Source: Escherichia phage allfine. From it: a DNA stretch of 64,000 nucleotides. Shown piece by piece: positions 9,237 through 41,004 of the stretch (positions within the stretch are counted from its first letter, which is position 1; each line of letters begins with the position of its first letter). The notes beneath the pieces are model-generated. The model saw nothing but the letters and a program-made list of their open reading frames with translations, did not search any database and was not told the DNA's origin. The stretch lies in the sequence record MN850633.1; one strand, written 5' to 3'. The position numbers were made by a program, and so were the translations under genes.

Positions 9237-9315
9237 TGGTACTCCATATCGGATTCGAACCGATACATAACACAGATTTTAAGTCTGGCCTCTCTGCCAA
9301 TTGGAGTAATGGAGC
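9237..9315 (-). tRNA. tRNA-Leu (UAA)?, Leu-like D-loop AAUUGGCAGAG but short variable region
   Basis: T-arm AUCGG-UUCGAAU-CCGAU, acceptor GCUCCAU/AUGGAGU, anticodon loop CUUAAAA; atypical for a type II tRNA. Confidence 0.45.
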
Positions 9316-9317
9316 AT

Positions 9318-9392
9318 TGGCGGGGGATGTTGGAATTGAACCAACTTCTTCGATTTCAAAGACCGAGGTTTTAACCTTGTAAACTAATCCCC
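9318..9392 (-). tRNA. tRNA-Gln (UUG)
   Basis: Anticodon stem UCGGU/AUCGA loop CUUUGAA, T-arm GUUGG-UUCAAUU-CCAAC; acceptor pairing imperfect. Confidence 0.55.
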
Positions 9393-9401
9393 TTTAAATC
9401 T

Positions 9402-9959
9402 TTACTTTCTCAGTGGATGAATAAAGAATGCCAACATAACTCTTTCCCTTGAGAATGCTCTTTCTTCTGGGACAACACTTTTTAGTTTCCATCCAATATA
9501 AATTCTCCAGTAAAATTGTTTACCAAAGATTTTAATTGATGGGATAAAAGCGAATAATCCCCAAGCATTCCTGTTCCACATTAGGAGATAACCAGTCTGA
9601 TTATCTTCAGGGTTAGAACTTACGTTGATATTACCTTTCCACTTAGTAACATCTTTTACATCTCTTCCTAACACATGGTAAGAGAAGTTATAAGCTTTGT
9701 TTCTCCAGAGCCATCCAACTCTTTGCATGTAGACACCTAGTTTACCAATCCATCTAATATTAGCCCATCTTTTAACGTGACCTTCATCACCATCAATTGG
9801 GTTGTCATAGGTCTCCATCCATCTGAATCCAAAAGGTAGATGTCCTTTCTTCTCACTGTAGAATGGAACTACAAAAGGTGCTAAGATAACTGCTAAGATT
9901 GCTGCAAATGGCTCTAACAAAGCTAAGAAAATCCATGAAGCATACTTCAAATATCTCAT
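9402..9959 (-). CDS. hypothetical membrane protein (185 aa)
   Basis: ORF with strongly hydrophobic N-terminus (two predicted TM helices), Trp-rich; embedded in tRNA array. Confidence 0.45.
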   Translation of the reverse strand: MRYLKYASWIFLALLEPFAAILAVILAPFVVPFYSEKKGHLPFGFRWMETYDNPIDGDEGHVKRWANIRWIGKLGVYMQRVGWLWRNKAYNFSYHVLGRDVKDVTKWKGNINVSSNPEDNQTGYLLMWNRNAWGLFAFIPSIKIFGKQFYWRIYIGWKLKSVVPEERAFSRERVMLAFFIHPLRK

Positions 9960-9978
9960 CTAAATAGCCTCTTTAAAT

Positions 9979-10054
9979 TGGCGCAGGATAAGGGATTCGA
10001 ACCCCTATTAACAGCTTCGTAGACTGTTGCTCTATCCATTTGAACTAATCCTGC
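9979..10054 (-). tRNA. tRNA-Arg (ACG)
   Basis: Acceptor GCAGGAU/AUCCUGC, D-stem GUUC/GAGC, anticodon stem ACAGU/GCUGU loop CUACGAA, T-arm AGGGG-UUCGAAU-CCCUU, CCA. Confidence 0.8.
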
Positions 10055-10059
10055 AAAAT

Positions 10060-10137
10060 TGGTGTTCCAAGACGGATTCGAACCGTCACTAGTACAAGGT
10101 TTGAGCTTGCATCCTCTGCCAATTGGGATACTGGAAC
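10060..10137 (-). tRNA. tRNA-Leu (CAA)?, Leu-like D-loop, short variable region
   Basis: Acceptor GUUCCAG/UUGGAAC, anticodon stem GCAAG/CUUGU loop CUCAAAC, T-arm GACGG-UUCGAAU-CCGUC. Confidence 0.5.
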
Positions 10138-10138
10138 A

Positions 10139-10213
10139 TGGTACTCACTAAAGGACTTGAACCTTTTTCTTCATCTTGTAAGGGTGATGTTTTACCATAT
10201 AAACTAAGCGAGT
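10139..10213 (-). tRNA. tRNA-Val (UAC)
   Basis: Acceptor ACUCGCU/AGUGAGU, D-stem GUUU/AAAC, anticodon loop CUUACAA, T-arm AAAGG-UUCAAGU-CCUUU. Confidence 0.65.
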
Positions 10214-10306
10214 ATGAAAGAGGTCTGGAGTTGTGCCGCTAACTCAACTCCGTGGAATTTGTTACGGTCTTCAGTTGACTCAAAGCGGTCTTTCACTTGA
10301 CCTCTG
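10214..10306. ncRNA. structured non-tRNA element inside tRNA array (candidate small RNA)
   Basis: Terminal 7-bp pairing AGAGGUC/GACCUCU enclosing hairpin GGAGUUG...CAACUCC; no T-arm consensus; fills gap between tRNA-Val and tRNA-Thr. Confidence 0.3.
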
Positions 10307-10309
10307 AAT

Positions 10310-10386
10310 TGGTGCTGCTCACAGGACTCGAACCTGCATTTCCATCCTTACAAGGGATGTGTAATAGCCAATTATACGAAAGCAGC
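10310..10386 (-). tRNA. tRNA-Thr (UGU)
   Basis: Acceptor GCUGCUU/GAGCAGC, anticodon stem CAUCC/GGAUG loop CUUGUAA, T-arm GCAGG-UUCGAGU-CCUGU. Confidence 0.8.
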
Positions 10387-10392
10387 ATTGTT

Positions 10393-10467
10393 TGGAGCAT
10401 CCAGAGGGAATCGAACCCTCAACCTCAGTTTGGAAGACTGTAATTTTCCCGTTTAAACTATGGATGC
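10393..10467 (-). tRNA. tRNA-Gly (UCC)
   Basis: Acceptor GCAUCCA/UGGAUGC, D-stem GUUU/AAAU, anticodon loop CUUCCAA, T-arm GAGGG-UUCGAUU-CCCUC. Confidence 0.75.
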
Positions 10468-10473
10468 ACTAAT

Positions 10474-10549
10474 TGGTGGAGAAGCAGGGAATTGAACCCT
10501 GTACTTAAGTTTGCAAAACTTATGTTTTAACCATGTAAACTACATCCCC
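10474..10549 (-). tRNA. tRNA-Ala (UGC)
   Basis: Anticodon stem UAAGU/ACUUA loop UUUGCAA; acceptor carries the G3-U70 wobble pair characteristic of tRNA-Ala; T-arm CAGGG-UUCAAUU-CCCUG. Confidence 0.8.
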
Positions 10550-10555
10550 ATTGTT

Positions 10556-10631
10556 TGGTACAGGTGGAGGGAATTGAACCCATCGTCTTACTGATTAAGA
10601 GTCAGCCGCATAACCATTTTGCTACACCTGC
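10556..10631 (-). tRNA. tRNA-Lys (CUU)
   Basis: Acceptor GCAGGUG/CACCUGU, anticodon stem GCUGA/UCAGU loop CUCUUAA; paralogous to the tRNA at 11790-11865. Confidence 0.6.
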
Positions 10632-10638
10632 ATTAATT

Positions 10639-10716
10639 TGGTAGGAGACAAGGGATTCGAACCCTCAAACATCTCGTTCTAAGCGAGATAGGTTTACCAA
10701 TTACCGTCAATCTCCC
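10639..10716 (-). tRNA. tRNA-Leu (UAG)?, atypical
   Basis: Acceptor GGGAGAU/GUCUCCU, anticodon stem UCUCG/CGAGA loop CUUAGAA, T-arm GAGGG-UUCGAAU-CCCUU; D-arm irregular. Confidence 0.5.
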
Positions 10717-10975
10717 ATTAAATCTTTTTAGAGAACTTCTAAGAACCTAAGCAACAAGGTTCCACAACAAGCTGTAATAACCTTAGAAGCCCTCTAAAAA
10801 GACCTAAAAAGGTCTTTGCATAGTCTTGTTTAATCCGGTGACTAGAACCTTTGGAGAGCTTGATATTATCTCTTCTCCGTGACACCTACTAGGTGCTTTA
10901 CTGTGCGTGTACGACAATACACTAGGGATACCAAAGCAACATCCGAATGAAGCTTGGCTTTAAATCTTATTAGGC

Positions 10976-11061
10976 GGTAAGTAAAGGAGTCGAACCCTCA
11001 CCGTATCTCTACAGTGGCAACTGTTTTCAAGACAGTTTGGCTACCATTAGCCGCTACCTAC
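10976..11061 (-). tRNA. tRNA-Ser (UGA), type II
   Basis: Anticodon stem ACUGU/ACAGU loop CUUGAAA, long variable arm, acceptor GUAGGUA/UACUUAC; boundaries approximate. Confidence 0.6.
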
Positions 11062-11075
11062 CCCTAATAAGACTT

Positions 11076-11158
11076 TGGCATGGGACGGAGGAGTTGAACC
11101 ACTTTGAAACGGTTTTGGAGGCCGTTGCTCATGCCTTAGAGTCTTAACATCGTCCCAC
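11076..11158 (-). tRNA. tRNA-like, possible tRNA-Trp (CCA), atypical 5-prime half
   Basis: Acceptor GUGGGAC/GUCCCAU with encoded CCA, anticodon-like arm ACGGC-CUCCAAA-ACCGU, about 7 extra nt in D region. Confidence 0.4.
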
Positions 11159-11301
11159 ACTATAATTCGAAGCTTACCGTATTTTCACAACACTGTAAAG
11201 CCCCTTCTCAGATTATTTACATGTTCTGGAAAACATGAGATACAGACCACCTCCTTACACGGAGACCCGATAAGGTCGTCTAAGTAATCTGCTAACTAAA
11301 T

Positions 11302-11383
11302 TGGTCGAGGCGGCAGGACTCGAACCCGCATACTCCACTTACTCGGTTAACGGCGGTTTAGAAGACCGCTGAGATACGCCCCG
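11302..11383 (-). tRNA. tRNA-like, possible tRNA-Arg (UCU), lacks canonical D-arm
   Basis: Good T-arm GCGGG-UUCGAGU-CCUGC and acceptor CGGGGCG/CGCCUCG plus CCA; anticodon arm GCGGU-CUUCUAA-ACCGC directly after acceptor; 23-nt extra segment. Confidence 0.4.
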
Positions 11384-11631
11384 TAATTATCTTTAAAGAC
11401 TCTCTTAGAAAGCCCTTAAAGATGCCCACCTTATTAATCATACCGTGGGCTAGTACGCCAAATTCTTTGATGAGGGATTGGAAGACCTCACTGGTGTTTA
11501 GCCTATCAAGCTACTGCCAGAAAAACATTGTCGTTTGCATTTATTTTAAATTTGCAAAATAGACGCTACGCAACGAAAACTAAGGTTACTATAAAGTAGT
11601 CACATCTCAATGTCAACAACTTTATTGAAAT

Positions 11632-11707
11632 TGGTACTGGTAGGTGGAATCGAACCACCGATGTTCCCTTATCAGGGGAGTGTTATAACCTTCTTAACTA
11701 TACCAGC
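11632..11707 (-). tRNA. tRNA-Ile (GAU)
   Basis: Acceptor GCUGGUA/UACCAGU, D-stem GUUA/UAAC, anticodon loop CUGAUAA, T-arm GGUGG-UUCGAUU-CCACC. Confidence 0.75.
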
Positions 11708-11708
11708 T

Positions 11709-11785
11709 TGGAGGTTCAGATGGGAATCGAACCCACATTCATAGGGCTTATGAGACCCTTGCATTACCTTATCTGCGACTGAACC
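11709..11785 (-). tRNA. tRNA-Met (CAU), elongator-type acceptor
   Basis: Acceptor GGUUCAG/CUGAACC, anticodon stem AGGGU/GCCCU loop CUCAUAA, T-arm GUGGG-UUCGAUU-CCCAU. Confidence 0.75.
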
Positions 11786-11789
11786 ATAT

Positions 11790-11865
11790 TGGTAGAAGTG
11801 GAGGGATTCGAACCCATCGCCTGTCAGATTAAAAGTCTGCCGCATAACCATTTTGCTACACTTCC
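11790..11865 (-). tRNA. tRNA-Lys (UUU)
   Basis: Acceptor GGAAGUG/CACUUCU, anticodon loop CUUUUAA, D region identical to tRNA-Lys(CUU) paralog. Confidence 0.65.
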
Positions 11866-12122
11866 ATTAAATTACCTTTGTAGATAAGCTACCCAGACTT
11901 GCTTAAGGTCTGTAGCGATGTGCCTTGTTGGGTTTAAATCTAGAATTTACCCTTTCACCCTTTGTGGTCGCATACTCACAGGTAAGCTTAATAACTTATC
12001 TACAAAGATAATTACCAGACCGTTGTTTATCATCTTAAGTGCTACCATTACACCAACTCGACATCTGCCGAGTGAAGGAATCGAACCTTCGCCTTTTCTT
12101 TACCGGAGAAATAGATTGTTTA

Positions 12123-12152
12123 AGTTTTGCTGTAAACGGTCTTCTGTAAATT
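12123..12152. repeat. repeat motif TTGCTGTAA-N2-GGTCTTCTGTAAA, copy 1 of 4 in tRNA array
   Basis: Near-identical copies at about 12205-12232, 12596-12629 and 12763-12790; CCAGACC partner forms long-range inverted repeat with GGTCTTCTG. Confidence 0.5.
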
Positions 12153-12204
12153 TGTTGAGCCAGACCAAGTTTTAAATTTTCAAAATTAAATTGGCTTGAA
12201 ATTT

Positions 12205-12232
12205 CATACATTCTTGCTGTATTTGGTCTTCT
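12205..12232. repeat. repeat motif copy 2 (TTGCTGTATTTGGTCTTCTG)
   Basis: Shares core with copies at 12123, 12596, 12763; upstream partner CCAGACCAAG at about 12163. Confidence 0.45.
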
Positions 12233-12294
12233 GCTCCTTTAAAGAATACTCGTAAGAACTCTTTAAGGGAGGGGCTAAATAGCCCTCTCAAAAT

Positions 12295-12371
12295 TGGCGG
12301 CTACGATGAGACTTGAACTCACATCATCTCCCGTGACAGGGGAGTATTTTCTCCAGTTAAACTACATAGCC
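12295..12371 (-). tRNA. tRNA-Asp (GUC)
   Basis: Acceptor GGCUAUG/CGUAGCC, anticodon stem CUCCC/GGGAG loop CUGUCAC, T-arm GUGAG-UUCAAGU-CUCAU, CCA encoded. Confidence 0.85.
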
Positions 12372-12376
12372 TTTAT

Positions 12377-12464
12377 TGGTGTGCCGTGTAGGAGTCGAAC
12401 CTACCGAGTCTCAATGACAAGGGATTTACAGTCCCCACCGCTACCATCTACGGGATAACGACAC
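12377..12464 (-). tRNA. tRNA-Tyr (GUA), type II
   Basis: Acceptor GUGUCGU/ACGGCAC, anticodon stem GGGGA/UCCCU loop CUGUAAA, long variable arm, T-arm GUAGG-UUCGACU-CCUAC. Confidence 0.75.
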
Positions 12465-12476
12465 ATTTAAATTTTG

Positions 12477-12550
12477 CGGTTAGTCAGGGATTCGAACCCT
12501 GTGCCATTCGCTTAACAGGCGACCGCACATACCTTATGTGCTTCCTAACC
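12477..12550 (-). tRNA. tRNA-Asn (GUU)
   Basis: D-stem GCAC/GUGC, anticodon loop CUGUUAA, T-arm CAGGG-UUCGAAU-CCCUG; CCA not encoded. Confidence 0.75.
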
Positions 12551-12595
12551 TTAATACATTGCCAGACCGTGTTTTTCTTTTATCCGCAAAAAGTA

Positions 12596-12629
12596 GTTTG
12601 TTGCTGAATACGGTCTTCTGTAAATTTGG
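12596..12629. repeat. repeat motif copy 3 (TTGTTGCTGAATACGGTCTTCTGTAAATTTGG) with upstream CCAGACCG partner at about 12571
   Basis: Same core as 12123 and 12763 copies. Confidence 0.5.
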
Positions 12630-12703
12630 AGGCGGGTGCAGGAGTCGAACCTGCCGATACCATGCTAATGAGACATGTGAGACGCCCTTTCTCTATACCC
12701 GCA
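12627..12703 (-). tRNA. tRNA-Met or Ile2 (CAU)
   Basis: Anticodon stem CAUGU/GCAUG loop CUCAUUA, D-stem GAGA/UCUC, T-arm GCAGG-UUCGACU-CCUGC; position 1-72 mismatch in one register. Confidence 0.6.
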
Positions 12704-12762
12704 ATTCTTAATGACCAGACCAAATATCTTCTTTGTCCGATTTCGTGTCAGATGAGTAGATT

Positions 12763-12790
12763 AAGTTTGCTGTAATTGGTCTTCTGTCAA
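12763..12790. repeat. repeat motif copy 4 (TTGCTGTAATTGGTCTTCTGTCAAAA) with upstream CCAGACCAA partner at about 12714
   Basis: Same core as other copies; on minus strand reads TTGACAGAAGACC. Confidence 0.5.
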
Positions 12791-12793
12791 AAC

Positions 12794-12871
12794 TGGCGTT
12801 CCAGAAGGGATTTGAACCCTCAAATATCCACTTTGAAAGAGTGGTGACTTTACCATTTTGTCTACTGGAAC
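12794..12871 (-). tRNA. tRNA-Glu (UUC)
   Basis: Acceptor GUUCCAG/CUGGAAC, anticodon stem CCACU/AGUGG loop CUUUCAA, T-arm GAGGG-UUCAAAU-CCCUU, CCA. Confidence 0.8.
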
Positions 12872-28633: not shown

Positions 28634-29014
28634 TCAGTTAATTTTGAAAATTGTCACATAGCCGTCACTGCCGATTATTTGAGACACTCCAGCTTTTTCC
28701 ACTGAATAGCCCATATTTTCAAGATGATAAACAGCATCATCATAACCATATGCGCCACCCTGATAACGTCTCTTATCGCATCTTATCAGGTTTTTACCAC
28801 GTCCTGCAAGTGCATTCAGTACAGCTTTTTCACTTGATAGCGTACCATCTAACATGGTTGCCGTGTAATGGTTGATTTTATTCCCGTTAATATCATACTT
28901 AAAATTGAATGCGTGAATAACAATCAATTTGCCGTTAAATTTTTCATCAAGTGACTTCTCCAGTGCGTTGCGGAAGTTGTCTTTGTTGATGAATTTCGGT
29001 GCACGATAAGCCAT
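28634..29014 (-). CDS. hypothetical protein (126 aa), array gene 3
   Basis: ORF preceded by type B cassette. Confidence 0.55.
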   Translation of the reverse strand: MAYRAPKFINKDNFRNALEKSLDEKFNGKLIVIHAFNFKYDINGNKINHYTATMLDGTLSSEKAVLNALAGRGKNLIRCDKRRYQGGAYGYDDAVYHLENMGYSVEKAGVSQIIGSDGYVTIFKIN

Positions 29015-29102
29015 TTTTGAATCTCCTAGTTTAAGGTTAATGTAGTAAAGCTCTTTATCTGGGGCTTACTTTATCGAACTATAAGCCCCTTGTAAAGTAC
29101 TT
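29015..29102 (-). repeat. intergenic cassette type B
   Basis: Conserved RBS block and hairpin. Confidence 0.7.
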
Positions 29103-29309
29103 TTATCTATCGTAATAGTAAACCGCTGTCTGTTTTATATGTCGCTTTGTATTCTTCGTAAGGTAGCAATTAGAGTTGATTGCCGTTTCTACATAGTTGC
29201 AATAATCAGCTTCTGATATTCTACGCCATGCGCCGCACACTTGCATGTAAAAACGTTTTACCTTTGTATTAACGTTGGTTGTAACCATCAATTCACGGCT
29301 GTAAATCAT
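29103..29309 (-). CDS. hypothetical protein (68 aa), array gene 2
   Basis: Start taken at ATG overlapping upstream stop (TAATG) rather than track start 29324. Confidence 0.45.
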   Translation of the reverse strand: MIYSRELMVTTNVNTKVKRFYMQVCGAWRRISEADYCNYVETAINSNCYLTKNTKRHIKQTAVYYYDR

Positions 29310-29497
29310 TATTTCGCGCTCCATTTCTCAAAGAGTTCAGCAGGGAAACGTTCGCTATAACCTTTTAAGGAAAAAGTGTTATCTTTGTGGATAGCTTCCA
29401 CCTGATAAACCTTATAAGAACGTATAGTTAGCATTTTGTAAGAGTATTCGTGCTTAATGTTAACCTCATCGCCAACTTTAATTTTTCTTGATGCCAT
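29309..29497 (-). CDS. hypothetical protein (62 aa), array gene 1
   Basis: First ORF of array, preceded by GGAGAATCTAAGAAATG RBS and candidate promoter. Confidence 0.5.
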   Translation of the reverse strand: MASRKIKVGDEVNIKHEYSYKMLTIRSYKVYQVEAIHKDNTFSLKGYSERFPAELFEKWSAK

Positions 29498-29548
29498 TTC
29501 TTAGATTCTCCAGTTTAGGAAGTGGGCTTGATTGCCCGTCTGATGCAG

Positions 29549-29577
29549 ATATTAGATAACCATACTCAAAGAGTCAA
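29549..29577 (-). promoter_or_regulatory. sigma70-like promoter TTGACT-N17-TAATAT driving small-ORF array
   Basis: Minus strand reads TATTGACTctttgagtatggttatcTAATAT, about 45 nt upstream of first array ATG; same -10 as tRNA-array promoter. Confidence 0.5.
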
Positions 29578-29754
29578 TAGGAATTTTAAAAATATTTTTT
29601 TTTGCAAAGATTGTAATGAAACGGGTGCGCGCGACTACCATAAAACAGAACTACAATCAAGAATTATTTTTCAATCCGCTACAAATTTTTCTGTTGACTT
29701 TTATTTCCAGATGTGGTAGCCTTGTGAGAAATGGCGACATCCCTACCTGCACCC

Positions 29755-29945
29755 ACCTACCTGCACAATTCTAAAATGATTTTTCTTGCCCGACCTGATT
29801 TTTCTCTGCACGTTTTGAAAATGAAAAAGCTCTTTGGAGATTACCTGCACAGTTTGAAAATGAATTTTCCCTTTGGAGTTCAAAATTTTCTCTACAGATT
29901 TCTCTACAGAACTCTACCTGCACAATCCTGAAATGAAAAAGCCCC
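29755..29945. repeat. four direct repeats CTGCACA(A/G)T(T/C)(C/T)TGAAAATGA in non-coding leader region
   Basis: Copies at about 29762, 29806, 29852, 29922; region 29498-30009 has no convincing ORF. Confidence 0.6.
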
Positions 29946-30009
29946 CCTTACCTGAAAAATTTACCAGATAAGAAAGGCTTAGTCTATTGTGAATACTATA
30001 CAGAATTTC

Positions 30010-30795
30010 TTAGTTCTTTGCGTCTAAGAAGGTTACTTCCGGTGAAGAGAAAACCGTCTCGATATCCTCATCATTTCTTGCATAGATGTAAGCATCTGCA
30101 TCACTGCCAAATGTTACTGCAATTCTGTGATTGCTCTTCGACAGGTGGGTAACTAGAGCGTTACTTAGAGACATCTTCTCAACCGGAGGGTTACTTTGAT
30201 GTATCTTACCTTTTCTTCGTCTGAAGAGGGTAACTGTATCATCTGTGAACATTACTACACCTGCAAAGTATTCTGGTTCACAGTAGTTATTCCAACCTGA
30301 GCGTAACTTGTGGTACATCTCTCCTTCGTAGACATACAGATAAACATCTACACTCTTCATCACCTGATTAATGATAACTGTGACGGCTTGAGGGTCTAGC
30401 CCACCGATACCTGCACCAATCATAGGTAGACCAACTTTCTTCAACTGATTGACTTCACAGTATCTGTTAAGCTGTTTCAAAGATGATTCTAAAGCACTGT
30501 ATCGGGCATCTTTACCAGTCTTAAGCTGAGTGTAAAGGTTAGCTATTCGACCTTGTTTTAAACGTGCTACAGAGAAATTACCCAGTAAATTTTCACAGGG
30601 TTTGTGTCCTATACCACCTGCATATAGATAAACTTCTGTATCGGTCTCATATGCTTTTGGGTAAAGTTTAGAAATCTTGTCAGCGATACCTGCACCCATT
30701 AAATTCATACAGTTGCAACCGTGACCGATGATGTCAAACTTACCTTTATCAAATGCGGCAAAGATATCACCATTGATTATTTTTACAATACCCAT
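30010..30795 (-). CDS. macro-domain protein (ADP-ribose binding/hydrolase family) with about 100-aa C-terminal extension (261 aa)
   Basis: Macro-domain signatures IINGDIF...DIIGHGCNCMNLMGAGIA and VGLPMIGAGIGGLDPQAV. Confidence 0.7.
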   Translation of the reverse strand: MGIVKIINGDIFAAFDKGKFDIIGHGCNCMNLMGAGIADKISKLYPKAYETDTEVYLYAGGIGHKPCENLLGNFSVARLKQGRIANLYTQLKTGKDARYSALESSLKQLNRYCEVNQLKKVGLPMIGAGIGGLDPQAVTVIINQVMKSVDVYLYVYEGEMYHKLRSGWNNYCEPEYFAGVVMFTDDTVTLFRRRKGKIHQSNPPVEKMSLSNALVTHLSKSNHRIAVTFGSDADAYIYARNDEDIETVFSSPEVTFLDAKN

Positions 30796-30996
30796 TTAAC
30801 ATCTCTCCCAAGATTCTTTATCTTCTGAAGGTTTTACACGTTGTCCTTCGTGGTCTACCCAGATACATCCACAACCTTCACAGATTACTGGCATTGCATA
30901 GCCAGCTTTAAAGTCATCTTCAGTGATAAGACCTTTTAAGTCACCTGTATCACGTCCGAACATTTCGATAGAACAGTCTTTGCAGAAGTCAGCCAT
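30796..30996 (-). CDS. small Cys-rich zinc-ribbon-like protein (66 aa)
   Basis: CKDC ... CEGCGC pattern; start placed at internal Met MADFCKDC; stop/start coupling with macro-domain gene. Confidence 0.45.
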   Translation of the reverse strand: MADFCKDCSIEMFGRDTGDLKGLITEDDFKAGYAMPVICEGCGCIWVDHEGQRVKPSEDKESWERC

Positions 30997-31216
30997 GAAT
31001 AATTGCCTCTTGAATGATGATGCCTTTACCACAACGACTTTTAAAGTCTTCCAACGGTTGGGAGATGAAGCCGCGCAAGCAATCACTAAATACTAAGTTT
31101 TTCCTGTAAGCTATCACAAAGTTTGTTGTAAACGGGATGACTTCATTTCTTCCAATGAATACTGCTGACCGGATGAGTTTCCGTGTCTTTTTATCTCTGG
31201 CTAGAATTACTCTCAT
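30989..31216 (-). CDS. hypothetical protein (75 aa)
   Basis: ORF in operon-like run. Confidence 0.4.
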   Translation of the reverse strand: MRVILARDKKTRKLIRSAVFIGRNEVIPFTTNFVIAYRKNLVFSDCLRGFISQPLEDFKSRCGKGIIIQEAIIHG

Positions 31217-31517
31217 AATTTACCTTCTCAGTTAGCTCATATAAATCAACATGCTCAATACTATCAATGTTGATATCAATCTTTTTGAAACGTTCCATCA
31301 CTTCATTGTCAGTCATCCATATCAGACACCAATGATTGTGGATGGATTCTTCAAGAAGGTCAACACAATCTTTAAAAGTTTTTGTATCACTTCTTGTTCC
31401 TACTACTGCGATTGTTCCATATAGCCACTTACCATTGCCATAGGTTACCTGTGCTACACCAACTTCTTTATTGTTATCATAGTAAACGGCTACAAAGTCT
31501 CTTCCATTAATCTGCAT
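31191..31517 (-). CDS. hypothetical protein (108 aa)
   Basis: ORF in operon-like run. Confidence 0.5.
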   Translation of the reverse strand: MQINGRDFVAVYYDNNKEVGVAQVTYGNGKWLYGTIAVVGTRSDTKTFKDCVDLLEESIHNHWCLIWMTDNEVMERFKKIDINIDSIEHVDLYELTEKVNYESNSSQR

Positions 31518-31519
31518 AG

Positions 31520-31789
31520 CTACTTCCTCGTTTTAAGAACTGCTAAGATTTCTTTAGAATCTGGTAAGAACCATGTGTAGTGATTCTCTTTGATTTCTGG
31601 ATGAGTGTCAACCTTTATTTTGCACTCTTTGCCAACATGCTTAAGTTGTGCTGTGACACCTTGCATAAAGATATGACACATCACGTTATCCATAATGGTT
31701 GGTGAGAAATCAATTCGCATATAAGTCTCTTTTGGTCGTGGTAGCAGTAAGTACCCTTCTACGTAAAAAGTATCTTGATTCTCTGTCAT
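31520..31789 (-). CDS. hypothetical protein (89 aa)
   Basis: ORF in operon-like run. Confidence 0.5.
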   Translation of the reverse strand: MTENQDTFYVEGYLLLPRPKETYMRIDFSPTIMDNVMCHIFMQGVTAQLKHVGKECKIKVDTHPEIKENHYTWFLPDSKEILAVLKTRK

Positions 31790-32055
31790 TGCTGCTTATT
31801 CCCTAATAAAATCATGTCAATAAGGTTATTAGCTTTGATTGTACACTGGTAAAATCCGTCACGGTAGAACTCAAGTGCTGCTGCTACATCACTACCTGTG
31901 TTGCCTTTGATGATATACCGTGATTCTTCTTGAGTGTACTTATCACTCTCACTTACTTGGGAGTTTTTGAATGTACTGCTCACTTTGTTCGTTGAACACC
32001 CTGACATAATTATCAGTAACACAAACATTATAAAACTCTGGCTTAGTCTTTTCAT
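31786..32055 (-). CDS. lipoprotein, o-spanin-like (89 aa)
   Basis: Signal peptide with lipobox IMSGC; start embedded in 3-prime end of upstream membrane-anchored gene in another frame (Rz/Rz1-like overlap). Confidence 0.5.
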   Translation of the reverse strand: MKRLSQSFIMFVLLIIMSGCSTNKVSSTFKNSQVSESDKYTQEESRYIIKGNTGSDVAAALEFYRDGFYQCTIKANNLIDMILLGNKQQ

Positions 32056-32823: not shown

Positions 32824-33519
32824 TCAATGTTTAACTAACATGGTTTTGATGTGTGGAAGGATTCTATTCACCTTCTGCACATTCTTCTCTGTATCTTCTA
32901 TAAAACATACTATATTAAAGTAAGGCAGAATGCAAGACTGAATCATCCTCACTTTCAAACTTTCTGCACTTATAGAGTTAGTCCCAAAACCACGCATAAA
33001 AAGCATGTAGTCATGCTCTGTGTTATGCCTTAAAAACATCTCAGTAGGTATTCTCTGAGATTCGCCTCTCGCTGTCAAGAGTCCAACGGCAGCATGATTA
33101 GCAATTGCATCAATGATATTGAAAACATACGTTGGTTTTGCTCTTACAGAGTCAAGAAGATTAGTGTACTGTGAAAATGAACCATCAGTCAGTTCCGTTG
33201 AACAATCTTCGTGATTAAAATTTGTAAGAACACCATCAATATCTGCTAAGATGAGATTCCCTTTTTCTATAAGGTCTTTATTGACTATGACTAAACTATC
33301 ACGTTTTACACCTATGGATTGTCCAGTCTTTTTGTCCACAACGTTCACAATTGGTTCTGACGTGTGGAACTCTTCAAGTGAACATACAACTTCTCTTGCG
33401 GTGTCTTCAAAGTCTCTACACTGTTCTGGAGTCCATACACAGGAATCAAGACCTAACTCATGAGGATGTAAGTCATAAGCATGACACAGTACTTCATCAG
33501 ACTTTTTTAATTTTTTCAT
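32824..33519 (-). CDS. HAD-superfamily hydrolase, possible 5-prime nucleotidase (231 aa)
   Basis: HAD motif I LADIDGVLTNF in central region. Confidence 0.5.
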   Translation of the reverse strand: MKKLKKSDEVLCHAYDLHPHELGLDSCVWTPEQCRDFEDTAREVVCSLEEFHTSEPIVNVVDKKTGQSIGVKRDSLVIVNKDLIEKGNLILADIDGVLTNFNHEDCSTELTDGSFSQYTNLLDSVRAKPTYVFNIIDAIANHAAVGLLTARGESQRIPTEMFLRHNTEHDYMLFMRGFGTNSISAESLKVRMIQSCILPYFNIVCFIEDTEKNVQKVNRILPHIKTMLVKH

Positions 33520-38276: not shown

Positions 38277-40058
38277 TTAAAGCTGCTTGTCAATATTATT
38301 TCGAATATCACCAAGAGTTGTGTAACCGAACTGTTCAGAGTCACTAAAAATTAAGCGTAGAGCACAAGCTGGGTGGTCAAGTGCATCTGCAAAGCTCTGG
38401 AATCCATAGCCATCTACAGCTTTCAGCTTCTCACCATCCCACATAGGTGCTACACCACCAAAGGCAGATTTCTTAACACCACTATCTGTTTTAGGGTCTT
38501 TTGCAAGCATAATCTCTTTACCACCAATGCTTGCAAGAGTTGCTTTGACAGCAAATGCAAAGGTGTCACGAGTCATGTACTGGTAAGTGTAAGAACCTAC
38601 GCCAAACACTACGTTAGAGCTTGCAAAACCCATTTCATACAGACGCTTCAGGATTTCGTTTGCACGTTCCAGCGTGATAGAGTCACCATAGATAAGTCCG
38701 ATATGCTCATCCAGTACCTTAAACCCTTTAGAGTTAATAGTTCCCCCAAAGATGTTGTACAGTGTCTTAATAGCTCCATCAATCTCAGCTACAGGACGTG
38801 TTACAACGTTTGCAGAACCAACCATATAAGCATTTTTCAACAGCACTGTATCAGCAACTTCAAAGTCTTCTCTGTCAACAACCATTTCGTAGCCTTCTGA
38901 CAGTAGCCATCCAGCAATACCATAATTGATGTTTTCAAGCTTCATGTTCAGGACAGAGTTCAGCATTGTGTCACTTGCCTCTAGCTTGCTTAGGTGCTCG
39001 TAATAAGCCTTCTTAGCACACTCTAAGTGGATTGCTTTATAGCCTGTGACAATATGTACAGGGTCTCCAGAGTCAGGACGAATTACCAGTTTGCCATCAC
39101 GTTCCATAATTTCTTTACGGAGTGCTGGTAAGATTTCTGACACAGTTCTCCAGAAGTTATAAGTATCTGAAACAATACTTACAATACCAGTTGGGTAAGT
39201 TTCTGTTAAGAAACGACGGAAGGTTTGTAACTCACCTTTAAAGCGTCTTTCTTCTTCAATCAGTTCATTACCACCTTCCCAAGCAATGTTTGCACACATT
39301 ACAGAGTGTTCAGTGGCTGGTACAGAACTACCAATATCAGAAATTGGGTAAGACTGTCCATAGATGCGTTTAGCCGTGTATACAGCAGGGAAACTATCAG
39401 TTCCTTTAAAGCTGGTTAAGTGACCTACAGCATTAAATGCGTCATCGGTAAAGCCGGACATACCACGCATAGCAAAGTCATGGCACTGATAAGGTAAATG
39501 TAAGTCGTTATCGCAAGTAAGGTCAGCCCACTTCTTACAGATACGTTTGTAGTGCAATGCGATAGTTGCAATGGTGCAAGCCTTCCAAATCTCAGCAGAG
39601 AAAGCATCTTCCAGATAACCTGCTACCCAATGGAAACCTGAAACAGTGTTCTGGAAGACAATCATTGGGACACGCATCGGGACAACTGTGCCTTCTTCTA
39701 CAGCGTATACTTCAACTGGCAGATAACCTAAGTCGTGAAGTGCTTCCCAATGCTCTCGACCGATAGCATCTTTACCCAGAACACCATTCATGACTTCTAA
39801 GATTTCGTCAATTGCTTCTTTTTTATCACGTTCAAAGAAAGTGGCGTTCCAGTGGTCTATCAAGTAATCTTTAACAAAACGTTGAATACCAAAAGCCACT
39901 ACACCATCAATTGCTAAAGGGCTGTTAAACCATTTGTCGCTACGTGGTGTCAGGTTGAACATCAAGTACTCTGTTGCACTAGGATACTGGTAAACATGAC
40001 CAGATTTGTAAGCATCTGCGTTTAAACCTGCTGGTACTGCATAAAGCGATTTAGTCAT
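38277..40058 (-). CDS. nicotinamide phosphoribosyltransferase family protein (NAMPT/NadV or Namat-like, 593 aa)
   Basis: N-terminal DAYKSGHVYQYP matches NAMPT DSYKVTHYKQYP; C-terminal GDSITLE...FGVGSYTYQ matches NAMPT core. Confidence 0.85.
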   Translation of the reverse strand: MTKSLYAVPAGLNADAYKSGHVYQYPSATEYLMFNLTPRSDKWFNSPLAIDGVVAFGIQRFVKDYLIDHWNATFFERDKKEAIDEILEVMNGVLGKDAIGREHWEALHDLGYLPVEVYAVEEGTVVPMRVPMIVFQNTVSGFHWVAGYLEDAFSAEIWKACTIATIALHYKRICKKWADLTCDNDLHLPYQCHDFAMRGMSGFTDDAFNAVGHLTSFKGTDSFPAVYTAKRIYGQSYPISDIGSSVPATEHSVMCANIAWEGGNELIEEERRFKGELQTFRRFLTETYPTGIVSIVSDTYNFWRTVSEILPALRKEIMERDGKLVIRPDSGDPVHIVTGYKAIHLECAKKAYYEHLSKLEASDTMLNSVLNMKLENINYGIAGWLLSEGYEMVVDREDFEVADTVLLKNAYMVGSANVVTRPVAEIDGAIKTLYNIFGGTINSKGFKVLDEHIGLIYGDSITLERANEILKRLYEMGFASSNVVFGVGSYTYQYMTRDTFAFAVKATLASIGGKEIMLAKDPKTDSGVKKSAFGGVAPMWDGEKLKAVDGYGFQSFADALDHPACALRLIFSDSEQFGYTTLGDIRNNIDKQL

Positions 40059-40104: not shown

Positions 40105-41004
40105 TTAATCAAGGTTTGCTACAGTAACTTGACCATAATGTGTTAAGCCACGGTCTTTAGCTTCCCCTAAAGAGTTTGTAGTGTAAATGTGGTCAATACC
40201 ATTGTCAAGAAGGTTTTCAACACCTTTAGAGAAGATACCATGTGTTACATAGAGTTCCACACGTTTTGCACCTGCTTCACGAAGATGTTTAGCTGCTTCT
40301 ATGAATGTTCGACCACCATCACAGATATCGTCGAGAATCATAACAGTTTTATCGGTCAAATCAACATCATCAAGGATTCGCATACCAGTAATTTCACCAG
40401 TCTTAAGGTTACGTACTTTAGACATTGTGATGTATGGTTTATCCACCTCTTTAGCAGTCTCTGCAATCTTCTTAGAAGCACCTGCATCTGGGGCTACTAA
40501 GTAATCAACCAGAGGGTCATTCGCATAGTGAACTGCGACTTCCTTTTGAGGAATGCTTTGGAAGCAGTTAAATAGGTTGTCTGGTACATAACTGTGAGGG
40601 TCAACTGCACAGACTGCACCAAACCCCATTGCATTAACCTGTTTAGCAAAAACCTTCAAAGCTGCTGCATCACCTTTAAACATGTGACGGTCATATCGTG
40701 CATTTGGTAAGTAGTAAAAAATGACAGTCTTTAAGGCATATTCATGAGGAACTAAATCATCAATTGCTTCTTTAGCAAGTGCCACAGCAAACAATGTGTC
40801 TTTATCATAACCTTTTACAATCATAATCACATTGTTGATGGATGATGCTGCGTGAGCAGTAAAGTCAACAAGCTCTTGTGAAAAGTGTCCACCAATCTCA
40901 CCAGAAGGGAACTGGATGAGGTTAAACTCTTCTTCATGAGACCCTTTTGTCGGTGAATGAATTATAACACGGATAGATGTTTTCATAGTTTTACTCTCAA
41001 TCAA
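40105..41004 (-). CDS. ribose-phosphate pyrophosphokinase (Prs) family protein, possible ADP-ribose pyrophosphokinase (299 aa)
   Basis: Type I PRTase/Prs motif MILDDICDGGRTF; size and N-terminal domain like Prs; adjacent to NAMPT-family gene. Confidence 0.7.
   Translation of the reverse strand: MIESKTMKTSIRVIIHSPTKGSHEEEFNLIQFPSGEIGGHFSQELVDFTAHAASSINNVIMIVKGYDKDTLFAVALAKEAIDDLVPHEYALKTVIFYYLPNARYDRHMFKGDAAALKVFAKQVNAMGFGAVCAVDPHSYVPDNLFNCFQSIPQKEVAVHYANDPLVDYLVAPDAGASKKIAETAKEVDKPYITMSKVRNLKTGEITGMRILDDVDLTDKTVMILDDICDGGRTFIEAAKHLREAGAKRVELYVTHGIFSKGVENLLDNGIDHIYTTNSLGEAKDRGLTHYGQVTVANLD

Follow-up and report, generated by a model that had tools for sequence, protein, structure and literature searches.

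The window analysed here is a stretch of 64,000 nucleotides from Escherichia phage allfine (MN850633.1). Positions 30010-30795 on its minus strand contain an ATG-initiated ORF (261 codons plus stop) for a two-domain macrodomain protein. The Felixounavirus Escherichia phage momo encodes a product of 100% identity, momo_74, under the name 'putative phosphatase'. Bases 29000-32000 of the window match 257 phage records, mostly Felix-O1-like phages of Escherichia and Salmonella, with momo being the best match (98%); the window is a segment of a Felixounavirus genome. The gene call itself is not novel, as public records name the gene 'putative phosphatase', 'macro domain protein', or 'O-acetyl-ADP-ribose deacetylase'; the 'phosphatase' annotation stems from yeast Poa1p. 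Immediately upstream lies an ORF (30796-30996, minus strand) for a 66-aa CxxC...CxxC protein with a zinc-ribbon-like CxxC spacing, which belongs to PHROG 2210, a family without an assigned function. The TAA stop codon of this ORF abuts the ATG of the macro gene (TAAATG), and its 3' end contains the GGAG-type ribosome-binding site of the macro gene. The sequence of this junction suggests translational coupling of the two genes. The gene pair is kept in Mooglevirus ESh19 (L006, 11799-11999 and 12001-12795) and is absent from Kolesnikvirus. A terminator-like hairpin with a T-run (29939-29980, minus strand) begins 30 nt past the stop codon of the macro gene, which is thus the last gene of its transcription unit; the unit also includes spanins and several small ORFs without assigned functions.

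The 510-nt intergenic region that follows the macro gene (29498-30009) contains repeats at 29742-29951 on the minus strand, i.e. four direct-repeat copies of roughly 30 nt with a consensus of about TTTTCATTTTCAAAnnGTGCAGGTA. The same region carries a tandem TTTCTCTACAGA pair followed by a sigma-70-like promoter (29577-29549) serving the next gene. Against an expectation of 0.3 copies, the window contains six of the sequence GTGCAGGTA, every one on the minus strand; this intergenic region accounts for four of them and the macro gene for two, which encode its two GAGI motifs. No further copies of the longer, ~30-nt repeat were detected elsewhere in the window, and no Rfam match was obtained for the repeats. 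On the upstream side, momo carries an extra 104-aa gene, momo_78 (L001, 22974-23288), between the homologues of window ORF 31191-31517 and the ORF starting at 31520, the homologous place in the window being at about 31517-31520; this gene explains some of the discrepancy in length seen with megablast (three pieces, 3765 versus 3001 bases). Located 2 kb upstream of the macro gene is a gene annotated as 'polynucleotide kinase' (32824-33519, minus strand; PHROG 3970), for which Pfam and NCBIfam gave no match. A HAD-type DxDxT motif is present in its product (LADIDGVLT); the homologues in loci L007 and L008 show HAD_PNKP marks that are only weak or faint. By its sequence, the product looks like a phosphatase-only PNKP relative.

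Residues 1-156 (30328-30795, minus strand) form the N-terminal macrodomain, which belongs to the TARG1/DarG/Poa1p structural class and to PHROG 335. Macro-domain signatures had been claimed for this protein in a preliminary description, and they were borne out by several lines of analysis. The Pfam Macro profile (PF01661) matches residues 25-141 (E 1.1e-7, 32.3 bits; gathering cut-off 22), and the AlphaFold2 model of the full-length protein has a mean pLDDT of 86 and a pTM of 0.85. In a Foldseek search of the PDB, this model matched TARG1, DarG, and Poa1p at E values of 7e-10 to 1e-7 with target TM scores of 0.73-0.82, in agreement with the PDB sequence matches, among which OARD1/TARG1 ranks first. 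Across 18 homologues, little or no variation is seen in the two glycine loops that bind ADP-ribose (M33-GAGIA38 and I126-GAGIGG132), the adenine-contacting Asp10 is nearly invariant, and H25, N28, Q90, Y99, and D134 are invariant. The G24-H25-G-C-N28-C-M30 motif (30706-30726, minus strand) contains the conserved macrodomain Asn (N28) and a His (H25) that aligns with H24 of the Adpp protein of Vibrio phage Gary and with H23 of Poa1p. In the N86-LYTQ90-LKTGKDAR-Y99 segment (30499-30540, minus strand), the residue aligned with the catalytic Lys of TARG1 (K84) and DarG (K80) is Q90, and the loop between Q90 and Y99 adjoins the place that the C1'' substituent must occupy. We confidently assign the domain to the macrodomain class, with an ADP-ribose pocket that is predicted to be intact.

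The extra C-terminal domain of about 100 aa mentioned in the preliminary description corresponds to residues 157-261 (30013-30327, minus strand), a 105-aa orphan domain predicted to consist of a helix, six beta strands, and a helix. It is predicted to be folded, both within the full-length model (pLDDT 83-91) and when modelled alone (pLDDT 77), and is in frame in every clade member. A search of 1.84 billion representatives with a profile of this domain matched its own clade only, DarG not being included, and the domain occurs only in fusion with its own Ounavirinae-type macro clade. Two divergent subgroups of the domain are homologous to each other (hhalign probability 96.8%, E 3e-10). Amino acid identity is 14-54% in the C-terminal domain where it is 40-81% in the macro part, and the dN/dS values in Felixounavirus-Mooglevirus comparisons are 0.41-0.47 and 0.15-0.17, respectively, and overall the C-terminal domain changes at roughly three times the rate of the macrodomain. 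Such fast evolution fits either a partner-binding surface involved in an arms race or a loosely constrained appendage. In the comparison between the window gene and that of phage REP12 (L005, 1201-1986), dS was 0.43 for the macro half versus 0.08 for the C-terminal half, a five-fold contrast that suggests a recombination breakpoint near the domain boundary. A 2H cyclic phosphodiesterase was rejected as the identity of the C-terminal domain, which contains a single, non-conserved H-x-S. An aRad1-like inhibitor of aRES was also considered, but an HMM built from the seven published aRad1 sequences matched neither the C-terminal family nor the window translated in all six frames.

The best PHROG match of the protein was PHROG 335 (E 7.6e-113). 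This was also the best match of four Adpp proteins encoded adjacent to NARP1 (Gary, 1.3e-49; PAK_P1, 5.9e-61; phiAbaA1, 2.1e-53; and RYC, 3.6e-35), of a T4-type macro protein (1.6e-71), and of the Kolesnikvirus orthologue (1.1e-74). In a tblastn search, relatives of the macro part were found in 2,847 of the 50,697 phage records, but at least 80% of the protein was covered in just 257, all of which are close relatives. Anti-defence roles of this family have already been published in 2025-2026. In a transposon screen, tk.4, renamed adfM (anti-DarT factor macrodomain), was the single T4 gene that became essential when the host carried DarTG2, and its clean knockout sensitises T4 to this system; the mechanism, removal of ADP-ribose from DNA, was inferred in that study from genetic evidence (10.1101/2025.11.20.689424). 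PhiKZ gp104, the AdfM of chimalliviruses, is DarG-like and retains the catalytic Lys (K78). The second characterised type, Adpp, is encoded by macro genes located no more than two genes from the NARP1 pair Adps-Namat and dephosphorylates ADPR-1''-phosphate, the product of the RES-domain defence aRES, which lets NARP1 rebuild NAD+ (10.64898/2026.01.28.702374). In the same study, the purified Adpp of phage Gary (KNV71_gp137) performed this dephosphorylation, the anti-defence activity of the Gary NARP1-AP was abolished by inactivating any of the three operon genes or by deleting the phosphatase, and H24A is the Adpp inactivating mutation in the primer table (10.64898/2026.01.28.702374). Handling of ADP-ribose as an anti-defence function, as proposed in the preliminary description, is thus supported by homology to T4 AdfM and Gary Adpp within PHROG 335; the branch of that proposal concerning Thoeris and cADPR isomers gains no support here.

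The NAD+/ADPR salvage pair attributed to this phage in the preliminary description was found upstream of the macro gene. Adps, the first NARP1 enzyme, is encoded at 40105-41004 (minus strand; annotated as ribose-phosphate pyrophosphokinase), and Namat, the second, at 38277-40058 (minus strand; annotated as nicotinamide phosphoribosyltransferase). The synteny of the pair with the macro gene in the same genome was confirmed, but membership in one operon was not: a distance of 7.5 kb and 13 genes, with two terminator-like sites along it, separates the macro gene from Namat, which is on its upstream side, and the macro gene belongs to a separate transcription unit. The 11-kb block extending from the macro gene to NARP1 is kept in 170 phage records, and the arrangement recurs in Mooglevirus, in Kolesnikvirus, and, at about 33% identity, in two metagenomic lineages. 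In every member of the two-domain clade that was examined with enough flanking sequence, NARP1 is located 7.5-10 kb upstream. The PNKP-like gene is kept between NARP1 and the macro gene throughout the subfamily. Erwinia phage vEam_PM_21, a Kolesnikvirus, encodes an orthologous two-domain protein of 260 aa (L003, 5998-6780), in which Gln replaces the conserved His (AIGQGCNC versus IGHGCNC), the residue that corresponds to the target of H24A in Gary Adpp; NARP1 is still present in this phage. The C-terminal part of this orthologue is too diverged for the HMMs used here and is linked to the others solely via the PHROG 335 profile.

These findings bear on the possibility that the protein is an Adpp that is unlinked to its operon, i.e. 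an ADP-ribose-1''-phosphate phosphatase serving NARP1-AP in trans. NAD+ phosphorylases of the RES type, aRES among them, cleave NAD+ to give nicotinamide and ADPR-1''-phosphate, and NARP1 is unable to use the latter; removal of the phosphate would allow Adps and Namat to rebuild NAD+, and the enzyme might also salvage ADPR-1''-phosphate from ADPR-cyclic-phosphate, a side product of ADPR-PP. We regard this reading as rather unlikely. Several observations speak for it. The protein shares its PHROG with the biochemically validated Gary Adpp, the conserved H25 aligns with the His residues of Gary Adpp and Poa1p, and Poa1p is among the structural matches. NARP1 is present in the window, and the orthologous pair in the congeneric phage Bas63 is experimentally active, with accumulation of ADPR-cyclic-phosphate; the extent to which the macro-NARP1 block is conserved and the lack of an aRad1-type aRES inhibitor in the window point in the same direction. 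In addition, aRES is present in E. coli, Klebsiella, and Enterobacter, which are among the host genera of this phage group, and the published NARP1-AP survey, which names no Escherichia or Salmonella phage, scanned two genes on each side of NARP1 (10.64898/2026.01.28.702374), a design by which the macro gene of the window would have been missed. Against these points stand the location of the gene outside the NARP1 operon and the fact that co-occurrence could be mere vertical inheritance of a syntenic genome. To our knowledge, T4 does not encode NARP1, and it keeps a closer homologue of the window protein, which indicates that the family has a NARP1-independent use. Furthermore, the Kolesnikvirus phage retains NARP1 even though its orthologue carries Gln where the candidate catalytic His would be.

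The length of the active-site loop also speaks against an Adpp acting in trans. The window protein, T4 Tk.4, and TARG1 each have a Q-to-Y loop of 8 residues; its length is 15 residues in Gary Adpp and Poa1p, 13 residues in PAK_P1, and 11-16 residues in every NARP1-adjacent macro protein of Table S1, parts 1-3, of the aRES paper (roughly 120 entries representing about 14 sequence types). In a sample from IMG/VR, in which 80 loci were reduced to 43 non-redundant representatives, Namat was found within 10 kb of 4 of 17 long-loop macro genes versus none of 22 single-domain short-loop genes (Fisher p = 0.029). The short-loop type is thus never next to NARP1 in these parts of Table S1 or in the IMG/VR sample, and no NARP1 is present near the genes for the close single-domain relatives P0020, P0024, and P0025. 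Based on these sequences, which are modest in number, we propose loop length as a candidate rule, derived here, for separating AdfM-type from Adpp-type members. The metagenomic P0024 contig (L010) is phage-like, and its macro gene, which is single-domain and short-loop, is directly followed downstream by genes for an RVT_1 reverse transcriptase and an 875-aa HATPase_c-like protein; this segment (9252-12820) may be a defence or anti-defence island.

Overall similarity places the protein somewhat closer to T4 Tk.4, with which it shares 35% identity over 160 residues, i.e. the whole macrodomain (E 3e-24), than to Gary Adpp (27% identity, E 2e-13). In BLAST, T4 Tk.4 scored 82 bits and a Pakpunavirus Adpp 75 bits, but other clade members reverse this order, so that similarity by itself does not discriminate between the two types. 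Neighbour-joining recovered the two-domain clade with a bootstrap value of 99, whereas backbone values were below 50, and phylogeny was therefore dropped as a means of AdfM-versus-Adpp placement. Net charge, considered as a possible indicator of DNA binding, was likewise discarded as uninformative: the macrodomain of the window protein is basic whereas T4 AdfM is acidic, and the values scatter within both classes.

The short loop, the distance from NARP1, and the close relatives without NARP1 nearby tilt the balance to an AdfM-like role. Our preferred reading, to which we assign a probability of roughly 45%, is that the protein is an AdfM-like anti-defence ADP-ribose hydrolase of PHROG 335, most likely working as T4 Tk.4/AdfM does. 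The macrodomain would bind the ADP-ribose moiety and cleave the group on its C1'' carbon, stripping the ADP-ribose that a host ADP-ribosyltransferase such as DarT2 puts on phage DNA, so that replication and transcription could go on; the freed ADP-ribose could be recycled by the NARP1 enzymes of the phage. The C-terminal 105 residues may bind a partner, be it the substrate, a host protein, or a further subunit, although this is a guess. What the analysis shows is the fold, the pocket motifs, the family membership, and the domain architecture with its distribution, whereas the substrate, the anti-defence role, and any function of the C-terminal domain are inferred. The AdfM-like reading comes with a caveat, as the sequence has Gln at the position of the catalytic Lys and DarG-type chemistry cannot be assumed. 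In addition, the AdfM-like and Adpp roles need not exclude each other: because both reactions cleave at C1'', one enzyme could do both. In the literature, no publication was found that pairs Felixounavirus with its macro gene. The Bas63 knockout-library study, which predates the description of aRES, used a panel of 33 systems, and its text names neither DarT nor the macro gene, while the phages of the aRES study included no Felixounavirus (10.64898/2026.01.28.702374).

Macrodomains are versatile, and other ADP-ribose-related roles were considered as well: degradation or sequestration of gcADPR or His-ADPR, de-ADP-ribosylation of protein or RNA, deacetylation of O-acetyl-ADP-ribose, and RNA-repair housekeeping, in which an ADPR-1''-phosphate by-product would be removed near a PNKP-like phosphatase and a tRNA cluster. 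Some database records name the gene product O-acetyl-ADP-ribose deacetylase and the top PDB sequence matches are OARD1/TARG1, but the TARG1 pair K84/D125 aligns with Q90/G131 of the window protein, and Ala38 occupies the place of the Asp in the GGG-[VLI]-D motif of MacroD. The housekeeping variant is favoured by the HAD/PNKP-like gene 2 kb upstream and by a large tRNA cluster in the genome, although no RNA ligase or Tpt1 gene was noticed in the part of the momo genome examined. In other phages, RyDEP turns cADPR signals into ADPR for NARP1, but RyDEP has a different fold. P0026, a distant metagenomic homologue of 339 aa, has the short-loop macrodomain of the family fused at its C terminus to PF20274, which we take to be a cyclic-phosphate-processing receiver-like domain. 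This fusion is a different way of building a two-domain protein and may indicate that some family members act on cyclic or 1''-phosphates of ADPR. None of the activities listed has been demonstrated for any homologue in the family, and we consider these roles, taken together, to be improbable.

The anti-defence reading is supported by these sequence comparisons, and what they add to published knowledge is modest: a two-domain variant in a well-studied phage group, the loop-length rule, and the possibility that NARP1 phages encode the macro partner at a distance from the operon. Felixounaviruses, which are common phages of E. coli and Salmonella, serve in typing and therapy, with Bas63 as an experimental model. 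If the preferred AdfM-like reading is correct, macrodomain counter-defence against DNA ADP-ribosylation would extend to a second large phage group and would involve an extra domain. If the protein were instead a trans-acting Adpp, Felixounaviruses should resist aRES, and the published figure of 15% for NARP1 phages that carry the phosphatase would be an underestimate, because adjacent genes alone were counted. In either case, the distinction between short and long active-site loops could be tested as a sequence-based criterion for dividing this one phage macrodomain family into two substrate classes. By prediction, the orphan domain has a compact fold, one that evolves rapidly, and its partner could reveal a new host-phage contact.

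Comparison with known macrodomain systems indicates where the protein differs from each of them. MacroD/YmdB proteins are characterised by N-x6-GGG-[VLI]-D and G-[VIA]-[YF]-G motifs. The window protein has N28-CMNLM-GAGIA38, in which Ala replaces the Asp, and GIGG where GIYG would be expected, and neither MacroD nor YmdB appears among the molecule names of the PDB sequence matches; the motifs behind some of the 'O-acetyl-ADP-ribose deacetylase' annotations thus do not fit the sequence. DarG2 and TARG1 provide the best structural matches (Foldseek E 7e-10 to 6e-9, target TM 0.77-0.82); TARG1 has an equally short Q-to-Y loop, and DarG2 also combines an N-terminal macrodomain with an extra C-terminal domain. 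However, the NCBIfam DarG model scored 47.7 bits against a cut-off of 250 and covered profile positions 4-153 only, and the PADLOC DarG model scored 47.6 bits at positions 18-146, again within the macro part only. The catalytic Lys of TARG1 (K84), DarG (K80), and PhiKZ (K78) corresponds to Gln90 of the window protein, and TARG1 D125, which together with K84 forms the catalytic pair of this enzyme, aligns with Gly131. The low DarG scores, the macro-only coverage, and the presence of Q90 and G131 at the catalytic Lys and Asp positions rule out a DarG/TARG1 orthologue.

DarG2 consists of a macrodomain and a toxin-binding domain, and by analogy the C-terminal domain could, speculatively, be a partner-binding module. 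The macrodomain would then remove the ADP-ribose mark or the phosphate on it while the C-terminal domain directly binds and blocks a host effector (DarT2, a RES enzyme, or another ADP-ribosyltransferase) or tethers the protein to phage DNA or to the NARP1 enzymes. We consider such a division of labour very unlikely; it would represent a functional analogue of full-length DarG in a phage, i.e. a dual-mode (enzymatic and stoichiometric) anti-defence protein with a new fold.

Poa1p (PDB 6LFQ) belongs to the same macrodomain class, matches the model structurally (E 3e-8, target TM 0.73), and has an H-x-C-N-C motif with the same His, but it shares about 26% identity with the window protein, has Ser at the Gln90 position, a 15-residue loop, and large insertions, and is a cellular tRNA-splicing enzyme, the yeast ADP-ribose-1''-phosphate phosphatase. 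The Adpp proteins share with the window protein the assignment to PHROG 335, a Poa1p-like macrodomain, the candidate catalytic His (H24 in Gary, H25 in the window protein), and a genome that encodes Adps and Namat. Unlike the window protein, they are single-domain proteins of 150-170 aa, their genes are at most two genes away from NARP1, whereas the macro gene of the window belongs to another transcription unit at a distance of 13 genes and 7.5 kb, and their Q-to-Y loops of 11-16 residues, compared with 8, are aromatic-rich. T4 Tk.4 is a single-domain protein of 155 aa, whereas the window protein of 261 aa has the additional 105-aa C-terminal domain; the anti-DarTG2 activity of Tk.4 has been shown genetically, for T4 alone; and, as far as we know, T4 differs from the window genome in having no NARP1. 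The two proteins nonetheless share PHROG 335, the H-G-C-N-C, N-L-Y-T-Q, and IGAGIG motifs, the 8-residue Q-to-Y loop, and Gln at the DarG-Lys position. As this Gln is also present in T4 Tk.4, the family must use a chemistry other than that of DarG, perhaps via the conserved His.
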